A DNA stretch of 64,000 nucleotides from Promethearchaeota archaeon (GCA_019058365.1 JAHPZE010000026.1:1-64000), one strand, 5' to 3'. Positions 52,603 through 58,630 are shown, counted from the first letter of the stretch. Made by a program: numbers and translations. Notes: a model not told the origin generated them from the letters alone.

Positions 52603-54858
52603 TTATTTTATCGGGCGACTATTAGCTTGAAATATCGGTCCGATAAACTGGGAATACAAACGACTATAACCTTCTTGATTGGAAACAACTGTTATCATGT
52701 CAGCTTCGTTTTCAGTGGCTGGAGCAAGAATTACCTCCTCTGCATCTCGAGTAACTGCGAAAAATTCTCCTGCAGTTTGTAATTGTCTGAATTGTATGTT
52801 CCCAAGTTGCTTCATCTTCCCTATAATTCCGCTATACTGCTGTAGATCCCAGTGACTGGTCAGCATGAAGCGAGCCGCCTTTTTCTGAAAAGCATATTCA
52901 GAGACAACTTGTAATATATCAGGGACGACGTATGGAGTAACAATGATGATCGAAGATTTTACGCGATAAACTGCATCTTTTATAGCAGCAACCATAGCAT
53001 CTTTTCCCACTACTGGCCAAGTTGTAACCTTAGCTATTTCAGGAATTGAACTTGAGGCATTATAAATATCATTTAACTTTCCTTCGTTATTTTCTGCTGA
53101 TTCAGTGGAATCATCAATAGAATTCATGAACTGTAATGTGAAGTCTGCGATTGCATCTTTTATATTTTGAATAGTATCTTTTGTCGTATTTGATAAGCTA
53201 TTTTGGAGGGTCTTTGCATTTTGTTCATATTTAGATTTATGATCTGCGAGCATATCAGTTAAGTTTGTATTCATATCTTTTGCTTCAGCATCCCATAATC
53301 TAATTTCACTATTTATTTTATCTGAAGAATCTCTTTTGCCACTATCGAAATTCATATCGACATCTCTAGTCCAATCTGCGCTTATCTTTTTAAATTCAAC
53401 ATCAAAGTCAGTATAATTTTTTAGAGAATTGTCTTTATGATTATTTATTGCATCATCATATTGTCTATGATGTTGTTTGAGTGAACTTTCTAGAGAATCC
53501 TTTAACTTTATTCTTGTATCGGAACAGTCTTTTACACCACTTTGAAGGGTATCATCAACTTCACCAGCTAGATCGGTTGCTAAGTTTTCTAATTGAGCAT
53601 TTATGGTTTCCTGAGTCCTATAATCAAGATCATTAGTTTCTAAAGTCAATCCATCATTTTCTTTTATCATAATATCTGTTACATCAGATTTTATCTGTTC
53701 TGTGGTTATGCGTGTATTTGAGATGTAATCTTCACTTGTTTTAATAAAATCTGGTTTCATAGGTTCTGTATATTTTAAAATATTCTCAATAGTTGTCTTA
53801 TGTCGAGCTTTATATTTTTTCTTCTTTCCCAGCCATAAAAATCCTTTTTTTGCCATATCTTCAGAAAAGTCAGTAAACCTATTTGCATGTTCAAGTAAAT
53901 TATCAATTAAGGTTAAAGTCATACTTTTAAAATCATTTGTTTGGTCGGTTAAGGTTCTATGCCTATCATCTATTGTAGCTTTTAAACTTGTTTGGAGAGT
54001 GTCTGTAGTGTTCTTTACATGATTTGTGTGCTCTTTTAACAAATTCGAAATTTTAGCTTTTAAATCAGTGATTACTTTATCCATACGTTCTAAATATTTC
54101 TCAAGAATTTGTTCCATTTTCGGTTTAAGTTGGTTTGCGATATTTTTATGTCTTTCAACATGTTCATCCAACTCCATCTTCAATTGTTTTTCTAAATTTT
54201 CAACTCTACTTGAAAAATCAAGTAATAATTTCGAAATCAATGATGTTAGATCGTCTCTTGTCTTGGTAATTTCAGTTTCATTTTTATTAACAATTGTCTC
54301 TGAGATATTTTTTAAATTTGAATTTAAAGTATCCATTATAGTATGAATATTACTTTCTAATGCCTTGTTAGTCTCAGTAAAACGCGTAGTGGCACCATCT
54401 ATTCGACTCTTTTTAGCATTATTCTTAGAATCAGAATCTTCAAAAAAGGTTTTAATTTGAGTATTAACGGCATGTTCTACCTCTCCAATACTTTTATTTT
54501 GAATCGCTTCAAGTTTCTCAAACCGATCAGACTGATCAGCTAGTATAGTATCTTTAATTCTAGCAATTTCACTTCTAAAATTCTCTGATTCATTTGTAAA
54601 TAATTCGAAATATGGTTCAAGTGGAATATATCTATCAATAATTCCTTCAACTCGTTTGAGGAACCCTTTCTCAACTAACCAATTGGTGATTTCTAATACA
54701 GTTTCATATTGTAACCCGTCATGTTCATCCACTAAAGTCATGTAGACTTCAGAAGGAGTTGCACGAGGTACTCGCAAATAGACTAAATAAATATTAATAT
54801 GGTCTTCGGCAAATCCGTATCGTGTGAATACCTCTTTAGTGAAATCTTTTAACGACAT
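52603..54858 (-). CDS. TrmB-like winged helix, long helical/coiled-coil insert and C-terminal TrmB/PLD-like domain
   Basis: N-term YG......IYL..L....T.SEV...L...LVEKGFL...YIPLEP; C-term VVG......I......KSSIIIVTP...RDAEEVILAP; GGAG SD. Confidence 0.75.
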   Translation of the reverse strand: MSLKDFTKEVFTRYGFAEDHINIYLVYLRVPRATPSEVYMTLVDEHDGLQYETVLEITNWLVEKGFLKRVEGIIDRYIPLEPYFELFTNESENFRSEIARIKDTILADQSDRFEKLEAIQNKSIGEVEHAVNTQIKTFFEDSDSKNNAKKSRIDGATTRFTETNKALESNIHTIMDTLNSNLKNISETIVNKNETEITKTRDDLTSLISKLLLDFSSRVENLEKQLKMELDEHVERHKNIANQLKPKMEQILEKYLERMDKVITDLKAKISNLLKEHTNHVKNTTDTLQTSLKATIDDRHRTLTDQTNDFKSMTLTLIDNLLEHANRFTDFSEDMAKKGFLWLGKKKKYKARHKTTIENILKYTEPMKPDFIKTSEDYISNTRITTEQIKSDVTDIMIKENDGLTLETNDLDYRTQETINAQLENLATDLAGEVDDTLQSGVKDCSDTRIKLKDSLESSLKQHHRQYDDAINNHKDNSLKNYTDFDVEFKKISADWTRDVDMNFDSGKRDSSDKINSEIRLWDAEAKDMNTNLTDMLADHKSKYEQNAKTLQNSLSNTTKDTIQNIKDAIADFTLQFMNSIDDSTESAENNEGKLNDIYNASSSIPEIAKVTTWPVVGKDAMVAAIKDAVYRVKSSIIIVTPYVVPDILQVVSEYAFQKKAARFMLTSHWDLQQYSGIIGKMKQLGNIQFRQLQTAGEFFAVTRDAEEVILAPATENEADMITVVSNQEGYSRLYSQFIGPIFQANSRPIK

Positions 54859-54879
54859 ATCTTTTTCTCCATTAAATTG

Positions 54880-55172: not shown

Positions 55173-55877
55173 ATGAAAAAGTTAAATAAAATATTTATCG
55201 GAATTTTTACTTTCGCAATTTTCTTATCATTATTCAACGTTAGTACTGTATTAGCTACTCCAGATACTCAAATTCCCGTCAGCAATCCCGGTTTATATCA
55301 ATATCAGGTGCAGGCAAATCATAGTTTAACATGGCAATTTCAATTGCAAACGAGACTGACAGTTCAAGCAAATATATCAGTTCAAGGATATATCAATTGT
55401 AGTGAAGCTCCGAAAATCGGAGATAAACATTTTGAAATTGAACTTGAAGCAGAGAATGACCTTGAAATGAATATGACATGTACAGAAGAACAGAAAGAAT
55501 TAGGATTATTACTAGGAAACAGATATCAAGTAAGAAATCAAAATCGTAACTTATTATATCAAGAAGGGTTTTGCATAAGGATTCAGACAAATAAATCAGG
55601 AGCAGAACAAATTAAGGCACAACTTAAAATTCAAGCAAATAATAGAAATCATGAGGGAACATGGGCTTACTATGATGAAACCGAAGAAGAATGGGTAGCT
55701 GTTCCAACAACAGAACAAGGAGGATATTTAGTTGCCGAAACTAACCACTTTTCTACCTGGACGATTCTTTTACCTGAAACTGATGATGCAATTTGGGGTT
55801 TTGTAGGTATTGAAGTTGTTTTTATAGGAGTAGTAGTCTTAGCTGTTGTTTTAGTGGTATATCGGAAAAGAAAGTAA
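55173..55877 (+). CDS. Secreted, C-terminally membrane-anchored protein
   Basis: Signal peptide MKKLNK-hydrophobic-VLA; beta-rich ectodomain; TNHFSTW; TM helix followed by YRKRK. Confidence 0.85.
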   Translation: MKKLNKIFIGIFTFAIFLSLFNVSTVLATPDTQIPVSNPGLYQYQVQANHSLTWQFQLQTRLTVQANISVQGYINCSEAPKIGDKHFEIELEAENDLEMNMTCTEEQKELGLLLGNRYQVRNQNRNLLYQEGFCIRIQTNKSGAEQIKAQLKIQANNRNHEGTWAYYDETEEEWVAVPTTEQGGYLVAETNHFSTWTILLPETDDAIWGFVGIEVVFIGVVVLAVVLVVYRKRK

Positions 55878-55933: not shown

Positions 55934-57196
55934 ATGAATTTGTCGGATATTATTAGATTAGGAAAAAAAAATAGGCATTTTTATGTCGTTATTCTACTTC
56001 TTTTAATATTTTTCATTGAATCTAGTTTATCACTCTCTAATGTAAATGCACGAAAAGAAAAAGTTAATGGTTTTTCAACTCTAGATTCTATTAAACCAAA
56101 AGAAAGAGTACTTTATGAGTTTATGAATAATAATACATTCGAAATTTCAACAGATACATATATTGATCTTTATATTGAGTATGAAAACAGTATTAGCTAC
56201 CGTCAAACCTATTTTATAATAAATAATAGTCTACCAGTTTCATTAAACATATCGACAAAGTCAAATTTACAGAATTTTGGAGTAATTCAATCTCCACAAA
56301 AGCCCCAAAGAGCCAATTATCAATTTCAATTTGGTTATAATTGTATTTTTAGGATAAGAATGAATACATCACTTTCTAACTTAACCATTAGATACAAAAA
56401 AAATCAACTTTATAATATAAATCCGGGGACAACATATTCATTAGCTATATTCGAATCTAATCAAGACTCGTGGAAACTAATTAACACTATTGAGAGAACC
56501 AATGTCACTACCTCTGAAAAAACCTTAGAAAGTTCTCTTTCAAACCTTCAGCAGGATACTGATTACTTTATCACACTTTTAGAAGTTGGGATTATTCAGA
56601 CTGATTGGACTTGGTTAGTAATCACAATTGTAATAATTGCTGTTGGAATTGCATCTTTAGTAGTTTTAATTTCAAAAAAGGATTATTTCCAGTATCTAAG
56701 AACAAGGACAGTTCCAATTGAGAAGGGCGCACATCGATTATCATTAGATGATGTTTTAGAAAATGAAAATCGAAATAAAATAATTGAATTAATTCTAACT
56801 GAACCTGGGATACATTTCAATGAATTATTACGTAGAACGGGGTTAGCTGCAGGAAATTTAGTCTGGCATCTTGATATTCTTCAAACATATAAAATTATTG
56901 GAAAAAAAAGAATAGGTAATTTTATCGCCTATTTTCCATATTATCAAAAAAATCCAATTTCAAATGTAAATTTAAAGTTACAAAAGAGTAAATTAACTCT
57001 AGAGATTTTGGAAATGATTGAAAAAAGACCTGGAATATGGAATAACTTAATTACTAAAAAATTTAAAGTAGATCATAAGACTATTCAATACCATTTAAAC
57101 AAACTAATTGATCTCGGTCTGATTAAACTAGAAAAGGAAGGTAGGAAAAAGAAAATATATCCCAATTTCGAATCTGATTATTTTAATCAGGAATAA
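55934..57196 (+). CDS. Membrane-spanning transcriptional regulator: ectodomain, TM and tandem winged helix (COG3398-like)
   Basis: N-terminal hydrophobic helix; TM WTWLVITIVIIAVGIASLVVLI; VLENENRNKIIELILTEPGIHFNELLR..GNLVWHL; second HTH TIQYHLNKLIDLGLI. Confidence 0.85.
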   Translation: MNLSDIIRLGKKNRHFYVVILLLLIFFIESSLSLSNVNARKEKVNGFSTLDSIKPKERVLYEFMNNNTFEISTDTYIDLYIEYENSISYRQTYFIINNSLPVSLNISTKSNLQNFGVIQSPQKPQRANYQFQFGYNCIFRIRMNTSLSNLTIRYKKNQLYNINPGTTYSLAIFESNQDSWKLINTIERTNVTTSEKTLESSLSNLQQDTDYFITLLEVGIIQTDWTWLVITIVIIAVGIASLVVLISKKDYFQYLRTRTVPIEKGAHRLSLDDVLENENRNKIIELILTEPGIHFNELLRRTGLAAGNLVWHLDILQTYKIIGKKRIGNFIAYFPYYQKNPISNVNLKLQKSKLTLEILEMIEKRPGIWNNLITKKFKVDHKTIQYHLNKLIDLGLIKLEKEGRKKKIYPNFESDYFNQE

Positions 57197-57205
57197 TGAT
57201 AATGC

Positions 57206-58630
57206 TTAAAGACTAGCAAACCATGAGTTAATTTGGGGGGCAAATATACACACTAATATAAACAACACTATGAATAAAATACATAATAAATTATGCCATT
57301 TAAAGTGGCCTCCAACATTTATTTTATATGCTCGGTCCCTAAACTCCCTAACTTTCGCCTTATAGAAAGTTTTTAAGCCTTTAGAAGTTAGCACTAATCT
57401 TCCATCTAGGTTTTCTATTAATCTCCCCTCTAATAGTTTATTCAAATGTTTTTCAGCAATCGCTGGTCCTAATTCATTATAAAAGAAGTCAGCAAATCCT
57501 TCATAATATTGTCGTCCGAGAGTTAGGCCTTCATTAAAATTGTTTATGAGTTCTGAACGAGTTAGACTTTCTCGTCTAATGCTTCCTAACAGATAACCCG
57601 TTAAGCGATTATCATAGACATTATCTGCTATTACTTTTATTGCGGTAATGTCAAAATCCTCTTCTTTTTTTGTTAATTCGTATAATATTTCAAATCCCTC
57701 TTTGAAGACTAAGATAGATATAATAATTCCTACAATAGAATCAACAAATGAATAATTAAATATAGCAAAAGTTAAACCAATTAATACTCCTGCAGATAGT
57801 TTTACATTTAATTCTGAATCCTTAGAATCACTTAAAAGAGATAAATTTCCAGATGTTCTTCCTACCATCCCTTTCAAAAACATTAATCCAGTATTTCCTA
57901 ATATTGATGCAATTCCTATAATGTAAGCTTGAATAGTTGGTGTAATATTAATGGGATTCAATAAAGCTTCAATATTAGACCAAATTAAGGTACCCCCAGT
58001 GAATAGCATTAATAAAATAATTATTACACTTGCAATTTTGTCTTTTTTAAACTTTAGTCCTAAAATAACAATAATTCCAATTTTGCCTAAATCTGTTAGA
58101 TTTTCAAATCCGTCTGCAACCATTCCTTGGGATCCTAAATTCAAACCCGTTAAAATTTTTAATAAAGAAATAACGATTAAAAAAACTGCTGTGGAAAGCA
58201 TCACCATAGTCTTAGAGAAAAATATCCTCATCCAATAAGAAGTGTGTAAGTTCCAAAAGTAGCTAAATTCAACAAGATTTATTCCCTCATCAGTAAGCGT
58301 TATAATATTATCTTGATTAATGTGAATCAATTTTTTTCGTTTTGCGTTCTGCAAAAATTCCTCCACATCCTCGTCTCCTATAACAACATTTCGTGTAGAG
58401 GAAATAAAAAAAAGACGCATCTTGGACTTTAAATCATCAATTATATTAACTCCATCATATATCAAACATAAAAAACCATATAAAAAAGTATGGTGAGGGT
58501 CATGGTTATGAGATTCATAATATTTTATCATTAAGTAATATCCTTTACTTGTTGGACCATACTTTAGCTCTTTTTTTGAATATTGAGCTTTTAAATCTGT
58601 TAAAGGCATTAAATTATGATATTTTCCCAA
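57206..58630 (-). CDS. Cation diffusion facilitator (CDF) TM domain flanked by winged-helix-like domains
   Basis: LKILTG...SQGMVADG.ENLTD, SLLSDS.D, DSIVGIIISILVFKEG; flanks L...KLI......TLTDEG and HLNKL....LI......LTSKG. Confidence 0.75.
   Translation of the reverse strand: MGKYHNLMPLTDLKAQYSKKELKYGPTSKGYYLMIKYYESHNHDPHHTFLYGFLCLIYDGVNIIDDLKSKMRLFFISSTRNVVIGDEDVEEFLQNAKRKKLIHINQDNIITLTDEGINLVEFSYFWNLHTSYWMRIFFSKTMVMLSTAVFLIVISLLKILTGLNLGSQGMVADGFENLTDLGKIGIIVILGLKFKKDKIASVIIILLMLFTGGTLIWSNIEALLNPINITPTIQAYIIGIASILGNTGLMFLKGMVGRTSGNLSLLSDSKDSELNVKLSAGVLIGLTFAIFNYSFVDSIVGIIISILVFKEGFEILYELTKKEEDFDITAIKVIADNVYDNRLTGYLLGSIRRESLTRSELINNFNEGLTLGRQYYEGFADFFYNELGPAIAEKHLNKLLEGRLIENLDGRLVLTSKGLKTFYKAKVREFRDRAYKINVGGHFKWHNLLCILFIVLFILVCIFAPQINSWFASL

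Follow-up and report, generated by a model that had tools for sequence, protein, structure and literature searches.

A TrmB-headed helical hairpin from Asgard archaea that looks like an undescribed structural spacer

Introduction

The closest solved relative of the protein described here is the chromatin protein TrmBL2 (PDB 5bpd, 5box, 5bpi, 5bqt), which consists of a winged helix, a helix and a PLD-fold C-terminal domain, without a sugar-binding subdomain or an HKD motif; the linker between its two domains is about 25 residues long. TrmB itself (PDB 3qph, 2f5t; PF01978, PF11495) has a single short dimerization helix and a second subdomain, with sugar contacts at residues 305–326 (PMC4158304). 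DNA recognition in TrmB, TrmBL1, and TrmBL2 is a function of Tyr50 in the recognition helix (PMC4158304).

Several other systems have features in common with this protein. Chemoreceptors (MCPs) contain a long heptad-based helical hairpin that has a functional tip and comes in length classes related by symmetric indels (PMC5907407). In SMC and Rad50, the N- and C-terminal halves of the head are reunited by an intramolecular antiparallel coil of 40–60 nm. The membrane-targeting motifs of MinD and MinE are short and aromatic-basic, and they bind membranes weakly and need valency (PMC6803595).

Here we analyze a 751-residue protein encoded in a 64,000-nucleotide stretch of DNA from a Promethearchaeota archaeon (the window). 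It has the same domains as TrmBL2, but its linker is a 520-residue hairpin, it is without the DNA-contacting Arg and Tyr, and the motif at its tip has no counterpart in TrmBL2. For its C-terminal domain the best structural match is TrmB, from which it differs in ending where the second TrmB subdomain starts, in lacking the sugar contacts and Tyr50, and in having a 521-residue hairpin in place of the single short helix. The protein descends from the TrmB superfamily but is without three of its defining features. Members of its family are annotated as "hypothetical" or as "TrmB regulator," and literature searches, accession searches included, found no paper describing a family of TrmB-headed rods. 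The family looks like an undescribed structural spacer.

Results

Gene and genomic context

The gene occupies positions 52603–54858 on the minus strand, in an ORF read from 54858 to 52603, and encodes a TrmB-headed hairpin rod belonging to clade A (see below). An earlier note on this DNA had located the ORF correctly, together with a central motif, KKGFLWLGKKKKYK, at residues 337–350 (nt 53850–53809). Direct reading of the sequence shows a ribosome-binding-site-like GGAG at 54867–54870 on the minus strand, 8 nt 5′ of the ATG. The gene is apparently monocistronic, with a divergent gene 314 nt upstream and a U32 peptidase-family gene 157 nt downstream; the neighborhood with the latter is not kept across relatives. 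Comparison of the family loci found no conserved operon for the clade A rod gene, and no conserved target or regulated neighbors. In Lokiarchaeia the clade A gene lies near the S6e/IF2/L7Ae cluster, a position that fits the expectation for an old, vertically inherited gene. A scan for sigma-70 promoters gave chance-level results, the sigma-70 model being ill-suited to archaea.

Some of the neighboring genes merit description in their own right. The divergent genes upstream form a pair: 55173–55877 (plus strand) encodes a secreted protein of 234 residues, anchored C-terminally, and its partner at 55934–57196 (plus strand) encodes a 420-residue protein with a single transmembrane helix, a part outside the cell and two winged helices (HVO_0163-like, E 5e-17). 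This 420-residue protein is a candidate one-component membrane sensor. The pair is kept in about 22–24 loci of the rod family. At 57206–58630 (minus strand) there is a cation-efflux family transporter between winged-helix-like segments (Cation_efflux E 3e-14, HTH_45 E 7e-4). A Pfam-negative ORF of 272 residues at 46733–47551 (plus strand) is kept beside S6e and fae-hps in Lokiarchaeia, and by eye its N-terminal part looks similar to the gelsolin-like proteins of Asgard archaea. Finally, in two further loci (L163:4232-4786 and L168:4063-4626) a gene for a Rab-like small GTPase immediately precedes a clade A rod on the same strand. This adjacency involves two different Heimdall-group families and is possibly due to chance, as such GTPases make up 43 of the approximately 4160 ORFs in this genome.

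Family and distribution

The rod protein has matches in 216 of 301 Asgard genomes. A profile of the C-terminal domain matches 200 of 201 genomes, a count that includes paralogs and short TrmBs. All the named rod homologs returned are from Asgard archaea, which is no proof that the family is restricted to them. In most genomes there are 2–5 paralogs with the same head. Short TrmBs have 34–46 residues between the two domains, compared with the 521-residue hairpin here.

A tree of the two head domains gave four groups with long inserts, clades A–D, the deep branches being weakly supported; both trees in this work are quick trees, with support by SH-aLRT only. Clade A (SH-aLRT 95) contains the 751-residue protein, and its members include sequences named at source as Jordarchaeales, Heimdallarchaeota, and Borrarchaeum. 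Clade B rods are 750–1800 residues long. Clade C proteins have inserts of 120–305 residues followed by a Pro-rich linker and a helical tail, and three of them occur in this genome. Clade D rods are mostly 1440–1540 residues long, and in four lineages a STAND-like ATPase and a second rod are encoded ahead of them.

We note several observations on these relatives. The three clade C paralogs (C21:75279-77486, C36:100505-102451, C7:131311-133335) share a TrmB head, a helical insert of 260–305 residues, the Pro-rich linker, and a common C-terminal helical domain. Two of the three directly follow co-oriented ORFs that appear longin/uDENN-like by eye; the MK-D1 counterpart of this ORF has no Pfam match. 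Elsewhere, a longin/uDENN-like segment is fused to a TrmB head (L183:7024-8409). The three-gene operon of clade D (L144, L178, L179, L181) encodes the STAND-like ATPase with a TPR-like tail (555–585 residues), a headless helical rod, and a TrmB-headed rod; a phmmer search of this genome (E 0.01) found neither the ATPase nor the second rod. Family members of 1794 and 1913 residues (L142, L143, L145) would form rods of about 115–125 nm if they fold back in the same way.

The head domains

The N-terminal TrmB-type winged helix (residues 1–82, pI 4.9; 54613–54858, minus strand) was identified from the AlphaFold model, fold matching and profile comparison. In the 751-residue protein alone it gives a weak Pfam TrmB match (E 0.067), below the cut-off of PF01978, which is passed by the orthologs in MK-D1, B35, and H. 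repetitus. A family profile of the domain has TrmB (3qph, E 1.5e-9) and TrmBL2 (E 3.8e-9) as its best matches, which bears out the TrmB winged helix recognized in the earlier note. The wing and the helix-1/2 core are kept, with G15, T34, L61, F66, G72, R76, P79, and P82 conserved at 95% or above; the motif that closes the domain is at residues 77–82.

The C-terminal domain (residues 612–751; 52606–53025, minus strand) is a PLD-fold domain of the TrmB/TrmBL2 type by fold match and alignment, and is the most conserved part of the protein. It superposes on the TrmB effector subdomain (2f5t, TrmB residues 110–242) with Z 18.4 and an rmsd of 1.8 Å over 131 residues, and on TrmBL2 with Z 15.5; both rank above Nuc and other PLD folds, and 15 of 34 C-terminal domains match PF11495. 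The HKD catalytic motif (HxKxxxxD) is absent from all 34 aligned domains, in which only the Asp of the motif (D705) is kept and its His and Lys are missing. The PLD assignment made earlier, which specified that the motif was missing, is therefore correct, and the domain is predicted to be catalytically dead. The protein stops at the position of TrmB residue 242, and so does not have the sugar-binding β-barrel subdomain (Gly320, Glu326). The domain has conserved basic residues and a pI of 7.9.

Dead PLD-fold domains of this type are also found alone (150–210 residues), after a plain coiled coil (266–443 residues), or after TPR repeats (G000 C7:96996-97796; L130, L134, L135, L137, L141; P0240), which suggests that the domain is a reusable docking module in Asgard archaea.

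The recognition helix (residues 51–63; 54670–54708, minus strand) is degenerate in the alignment with TrmB. TrmB Arg48 and Tyr50 correspond to Thr53 and Leu55 in this protein. All nine short Asgard TrmBs, of which this genome supplies six, have Tyr at TrmB position 50, compared with 0/87 rods (0/29 from clade A and 0/58 others). The helix has a net charge of −1.4 in clade A and of +0.6 in the short TrmB controls. Its surface positions are mostly acidic and are only 21–56% kept among close orthologs, in which conservation is highest in the wing, in the C-terminal domain and where the arm begins. MreA, a TrmB without the Tyr, still works (PMC4158304), and therefore loss of the Tyr is no proof that DNA binding has been lost. 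Nevertheless, the loss of Tyr50, the acidic and variable recognition helix, and the absence of the sugar-binding subdomain together imply, as far as the sequences indicate, that the rod heads are unlikely to regulate DNA in a sequence-specific manner. The basic residues of the wing are kept (K68 in 75%, R76 in 100%); non-specific DNA binding by the head through the wing is conceivable, although we consider it rather doubtful. The description of the heads as DNA-binding, which the earlier note had proposed, is thus not supported.

The arms and the fold-back

The two arms are each 253 residues long. The outgoing arm (residues 83–335; 53854–54612, minus strand) is a single continuous hendecad helix of about 37 nm, and the returning arm (residues 351–603; 53050–53808, minus strand) is a hendecad helix with a kink at P366/P369, as judged in both cases from the model and the periodicity. 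The hydrophobic period of each is 3.67 (11/3, a hendecad and not a heptad), a signal exceeded in 0 of 2000 shuffles. Residues 83–603 contain only three Pro (246, 366, 369) and nine Gly, in agreement with the description of this region as almost free of both. It had also been described as having a single conspicuous break at its center, and this break is confirmed, as a loop at residues 336–342 between equal arms; P366/P369 add a second, small kink on which the earlier note is silent. What that note states about the sequence is borne out throughout. Invariant residues are spread all along the rod. The whole protein has one Cys, and no ATPase motif or transmembrane segment was found within its 751 residues.

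AlphaFold2, using an alignment of 103 rows, gave a model with a mean pLDDT of 80.7 and a pTM of 0.31. The model consists of a winged helix (8–79), a helix (83–335), a loop (336–342), a second helix (343–603) with a kink at 365–366, and an α/β domain (613–749). The two long helices separated by one break are the fold-back that such a model had been expected to show. The model of the MK-D1 ortholog breaks at the equivalent place, and its low-confidence stretches are two mirror insertions, whose poor modeling probably results from a shallow alignment. Superposition of the model of the 751-residue protein on solved hairpins is centered near residue 341 (2ch7 over residues 180–501, 5izs over 300–384). 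Some of the winged-helix structure matches extend to residues 599–611, which places the two ends of the protein together.

Indels were compared in 232 non-identical homologs from the Lokiarchaeia clade, with lengths from 751 to 1052 residues. In all 232, the region 116–237 and its mirror region 452–538 are lengthened equally, with no unbalanced cases. There are 12 classes of arm insertion (0, 11, 40, 44, 51, 62, 73, 84, 95, 106, 128, and 150 residues), all of which are 11n or 11n+7 and therefore keep the phase of the coiled coil. In one homolog, 11 residues are missing on either side of the tip (−11/−11); outside the balanced indels only the tip loop varies, by 0–4 residues. About 16 separate indel events were counted by eye on a quick tree, and the same classes recur on separate branches, so that they do not represent one inherited change. 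Covariation analysis placed 10 of the 12 best anti-diagonals at i+j 675–689, each of them weak (z 1.8–2.8), and the parallel diagonals were scattered.

The balanced indels, covariation and AlphaFold thus agree on a fold-back. That the arms pair in an antiparallel manner is close to certain, and that they do so within one chain is highly probable. The same evidence upholds the earlier proposal of an antiparallel fold-back that brings both TrmB-type domains to one end of a rod tens of nm in length; the proposed exposed, basic-aromatic tip is supported as well (see below). Taking 0.148 nm per residue, the length comes to 37 nm for this protein, 53 nm for the MK-D1 ortholog, and 60 nm for that of L. 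ossiferum B35. This 1.6-fold spread within one class argues against a fixed ruler. A complex prediction using two copies of residues 175–510 scored 0.37, compared with a mark of 0.42, and speaks neither for nor against a four-helix dimer.

The rod resembles SMC and Rad50 in the way in which its head halves are reunited, but it lacks Walker motifs, a hinge domain, and a Zn hook, and the structure matches have an rmsd above 19 Å. No P-loop family match was found that would indicate a split ABC ATPase head, and TrmB folds explain both end domains completely. Among viral folds, the only matches were PLD folds and SMC-like rods, the latter with a very high rmsd. In Pfam and NCBIfam there are matches to apolipoprotein, ZorA, SpiroCoCo, exonuclease VII, and tape-measure proteins, but these fall short of the cut-off and reflect composition, and homology was rejected.

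The tip

The model and alignment identify the tip of the hairpin (residues 336–350; 53809–53853, minus strand) as a Gly-aromatic-polyLys loop. Its net charge is +7 per 15 residues; the remainder of the rod has a mean of −0.8 (sd 1.6) and a maximum of +4. Among the 232 homologs, G339 is kept in 96% and G344 in 90%, and position 342 is always W or F. There are 90 distinct tip variants, all of which are net positive (median +5) and contain at least two aromatics. The length and order of the residues vary while the composition is kept, which is better suited to a lipid surface than to a protein pocket.

The segment richest in basic, aromatic and Gly/Pro residues lies no more than 20 residues from the middle of the rod in 15/20 rods of clade A (1.9 expected) and 4/5 of clade D (0.2 expected). 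In clade B the corresponding count is only 9/40 (4.5 expected), and the segment is mostly a Pro-rich loop. Related proteins in these counts are not independent of one another, and knowledge of the motif guided the choice of score. A clear tip is missing in most rods of the widespread clade B and in five members of clade A. The tip conservation that had been looked for across Asgard orthologs therefore holds for the Lokiarchaeia clade, and for most of clades A and D, but not for clade B.

In the models of both this protein and the MK-D1 ortholog, the tip has a pLDDT of about 50. Its composition fits a membrane-targeting motif of the MinD type. The hydrophobic moment is 0.40 for this tip and 0.07–0.17 for the longer variants (the tip being modeled as a low-confidence loop); given the low values of the longer variants, an amphipathic helix of the MinD type is no more than a candidate. 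The tip resembles the MinD and MinE motifs in being a short combination of aromatic/aliphatic residues and lysine, a resemblance that extends over 14 residues, and differs from them in being internal, at the turn of a hairpin. An atlas search with the tip region gave no usable match. Exposed Trp or Phe beside poly-Lys is a typical bilayer-interface motif, and the composition of the tip suggests that it may bind lipid.

The MK-D1 ortholog and its expression

The ortholog in P. syntrophicum MK-D1 is QEE17539.1 (963 residues; 3.186–3.189 Mb of CP042905.2), named "TrmB family transcriptional regulator," and that in B35 is NEF87_001274. In the published MK-D1 proteome, a protein with the same name, DSAG12_03376, is 10th by Byonic score, with an NSAF of 0.15, which is approximately 60% of the value of 0.24 for pyruvate-phosphate dikinase (PMC11284389); the Byonic score favors long proteins, and DSAG12_03376 is not among the top proteins by NSAF. 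Position anchors provided by aconitase (02468, 2.111 Mb), a likely SBP (03090, 2.844 Mb), and the dikinase (03802, 3.566 Mb) place tag 03376 at 3.13–3.18 Mb, and QEE17539.1 is the sole TrmB match over cut-off in that region. On this positional mapping of the locus tag, QEE17539.1 is likely to be DSAG12_03376. If so, its level is high for a gene-specific regulator. An RNA run over the MK-D1 locus gave one flat contig across 18 kb and is uninformative on expression.

Discussion

The protein has the two TrmB-type domains and folds back on itself, its tip is conserved, and it has lost the DNA-reading Tyr together with the catalytic and sugar-binding parts. We tentatively favor, at somewhat less than even confidence, the explanation that it is a structural spacer whose tip anchors it, probably to the membrane, and whose head is a module for assembly. 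A TrmBL2-like ancestor would have expanded its short dimerization helix into a long antiparallel hendecad hairpin, giving a stiff rod in which the winged helix and the dead PLD-fold domain are reunited as a head, with the basic-aromatic loop at the far end. The protein would then have a passive role, as a structural spacer or scaffold. Its tip would dock on an anionic surface, for which the cytoplasmic face of the membrane is the likeliest candidate, inserting its aromatics and placing its lysines on the headgroups; by analogy with the helix of MinD, several tips would probably be needed for avidity. The head would assemble with itself, with paralogs or with other proteins, and would not read DNA sequence. 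The anatomy comes from comparison and modeling, and from it we infer each of these binding steps, the head partners, the stiffness and the oligomer state. The level of the MK-D1 protein (if the mapping is right), the lack of a target operon, the loss of Tyr50, and the absence of an ATPase motif or transmembrane segment are all counted in favor of a spacer. Against it are to be weighed the low model confidence at the tip, the low hydrophobic moment of the longer tip variants, the rods of clades A and B that have no clear tip, the spread in rod length, the poor modeling of the insertions in the MK-D1 protein, and the positional basis of the proteomic mapping. In addition, a basic-aromatic loop could equally bind nucleic acid or an acidic protein; the tips of chemoreceptors bind CheA and CheW.

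Such binding is the basis of an alternative in which the rods self-assemble into a filament or lattice, as a cytoskeletal or chromatin scaffold. The tip would bind protein or nucleic acid, for example the acidic head of the next rod, to which its basic charge is complementary, and the paralogs would co-assemble. The presence of several same-headed paralogs in most genomes and the clade D operon, with its ATPase and second rod, are consistent with this, as are the invariant residues along the whole rod, which go beyond the needs of a mere spacer. We consider it unlikely, in that exposed Trp/Phe with poly-Lys is typical of a bilayer interface, and the many tip variants of constant composition are better fitted to a lipid surface than to a protein pocket.

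A chromosome–membrane tether, as envisaged in the earlier note, would have heads that grip DNA non-specifically in the manner of TrmBL2 and tips in the membrane, holding the nucleoid 40–60 nm off. The geometry fits, the closest solved relative is a chromatin protein, and basic residues are kept in both the wing and the C-terminal domain. However, the tether depends on two separate candidate binding activities, both of which must hold, and the winged helix is acidic, with a negatively charged recognition helix and no Tyr50 in any rod. A tether is therefore possible but is not the likeliest explanation, since the head is without the usual DNA-reading residue, and we regard it as improbable.

The symmetric arm indels are a hallmark of chemoreceptor hairpins (PMC5907407), and the best match to the whole hairpin is a chemoreceptor (2ch7, Z 11.2, rmsd 12.9 Å), although unrelated helical bundles also reach Z-scores of this size. 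Together with the retention of both TrmB domains, this raises the idea of a one-component sensor-regulator, in which the hairpin, like that of a chemoreceptor, would carry a signal from its tip to a TrmB head controlling transcription. The rod differs from chemoreceptors in its steps of 11 residues, in having no Pfam MCPsignal match, HAMP, or membrane segment, and in its variable and basic tip, where chemoreceptors have a conserved CheA/CheW site. The recognition helix is unconserved even among close orthologs, the sugar-binding subdomain is absent, there are no conserved regulated neighbors, and (if the locus mapping is right) the abundance is near that of metabolic enzymes. A sensor-regulator thus seems quite improbable.

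Least probable of all are an interchain antiparallel dimer, forming a 75-nm rod with heads at both ends, and an apolipoprotein-like coating of lipid by 11/22-residue amphipathic helices: the balanced indels demand antiparallel pairing but are silent on whether it is within or between chains, and there are apolipoprotein matches (E 1.4e-9, 38 bits against a cut-off of 90), but the conserved Gly-flanked break lies at the point of symmetry and both models turn there, the apolipoprotein matches come together with tape-measure and ZorA matches and reflect the 11/3 period, and the Pro-punctuated 22-mers of apolipoproteins are missing (3 Pro in 521 residues).

What can be said of the family is that it is near-universal, vertically inherited, and apparently well expressed, with rods of 20–120 nm, and that its presence in both cultured Lokiarchaeia (MK-D1 and B35) makes it open to direct experimental test. 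On a more speculative view, which we regard as improbable, the four paralogous TrmB-headed rods would be an ancient, Asgard-wide structural system that predates the split of the Asgard classes and links chromosome or cytoskeleton to membrane at a set distance of about 20–120 nm, with clade A anchored in the membrane; in function, it would be a prokaryotic forerunner of tethers of the lamina or golgin type. If the rod does tether DNA to membrane, it would bear on the separation of DNA and ribosomes in Asgard cells (PMC8776820). Even without a tether, the protein is a clear example of how the fold of a regulator became a structural rod.
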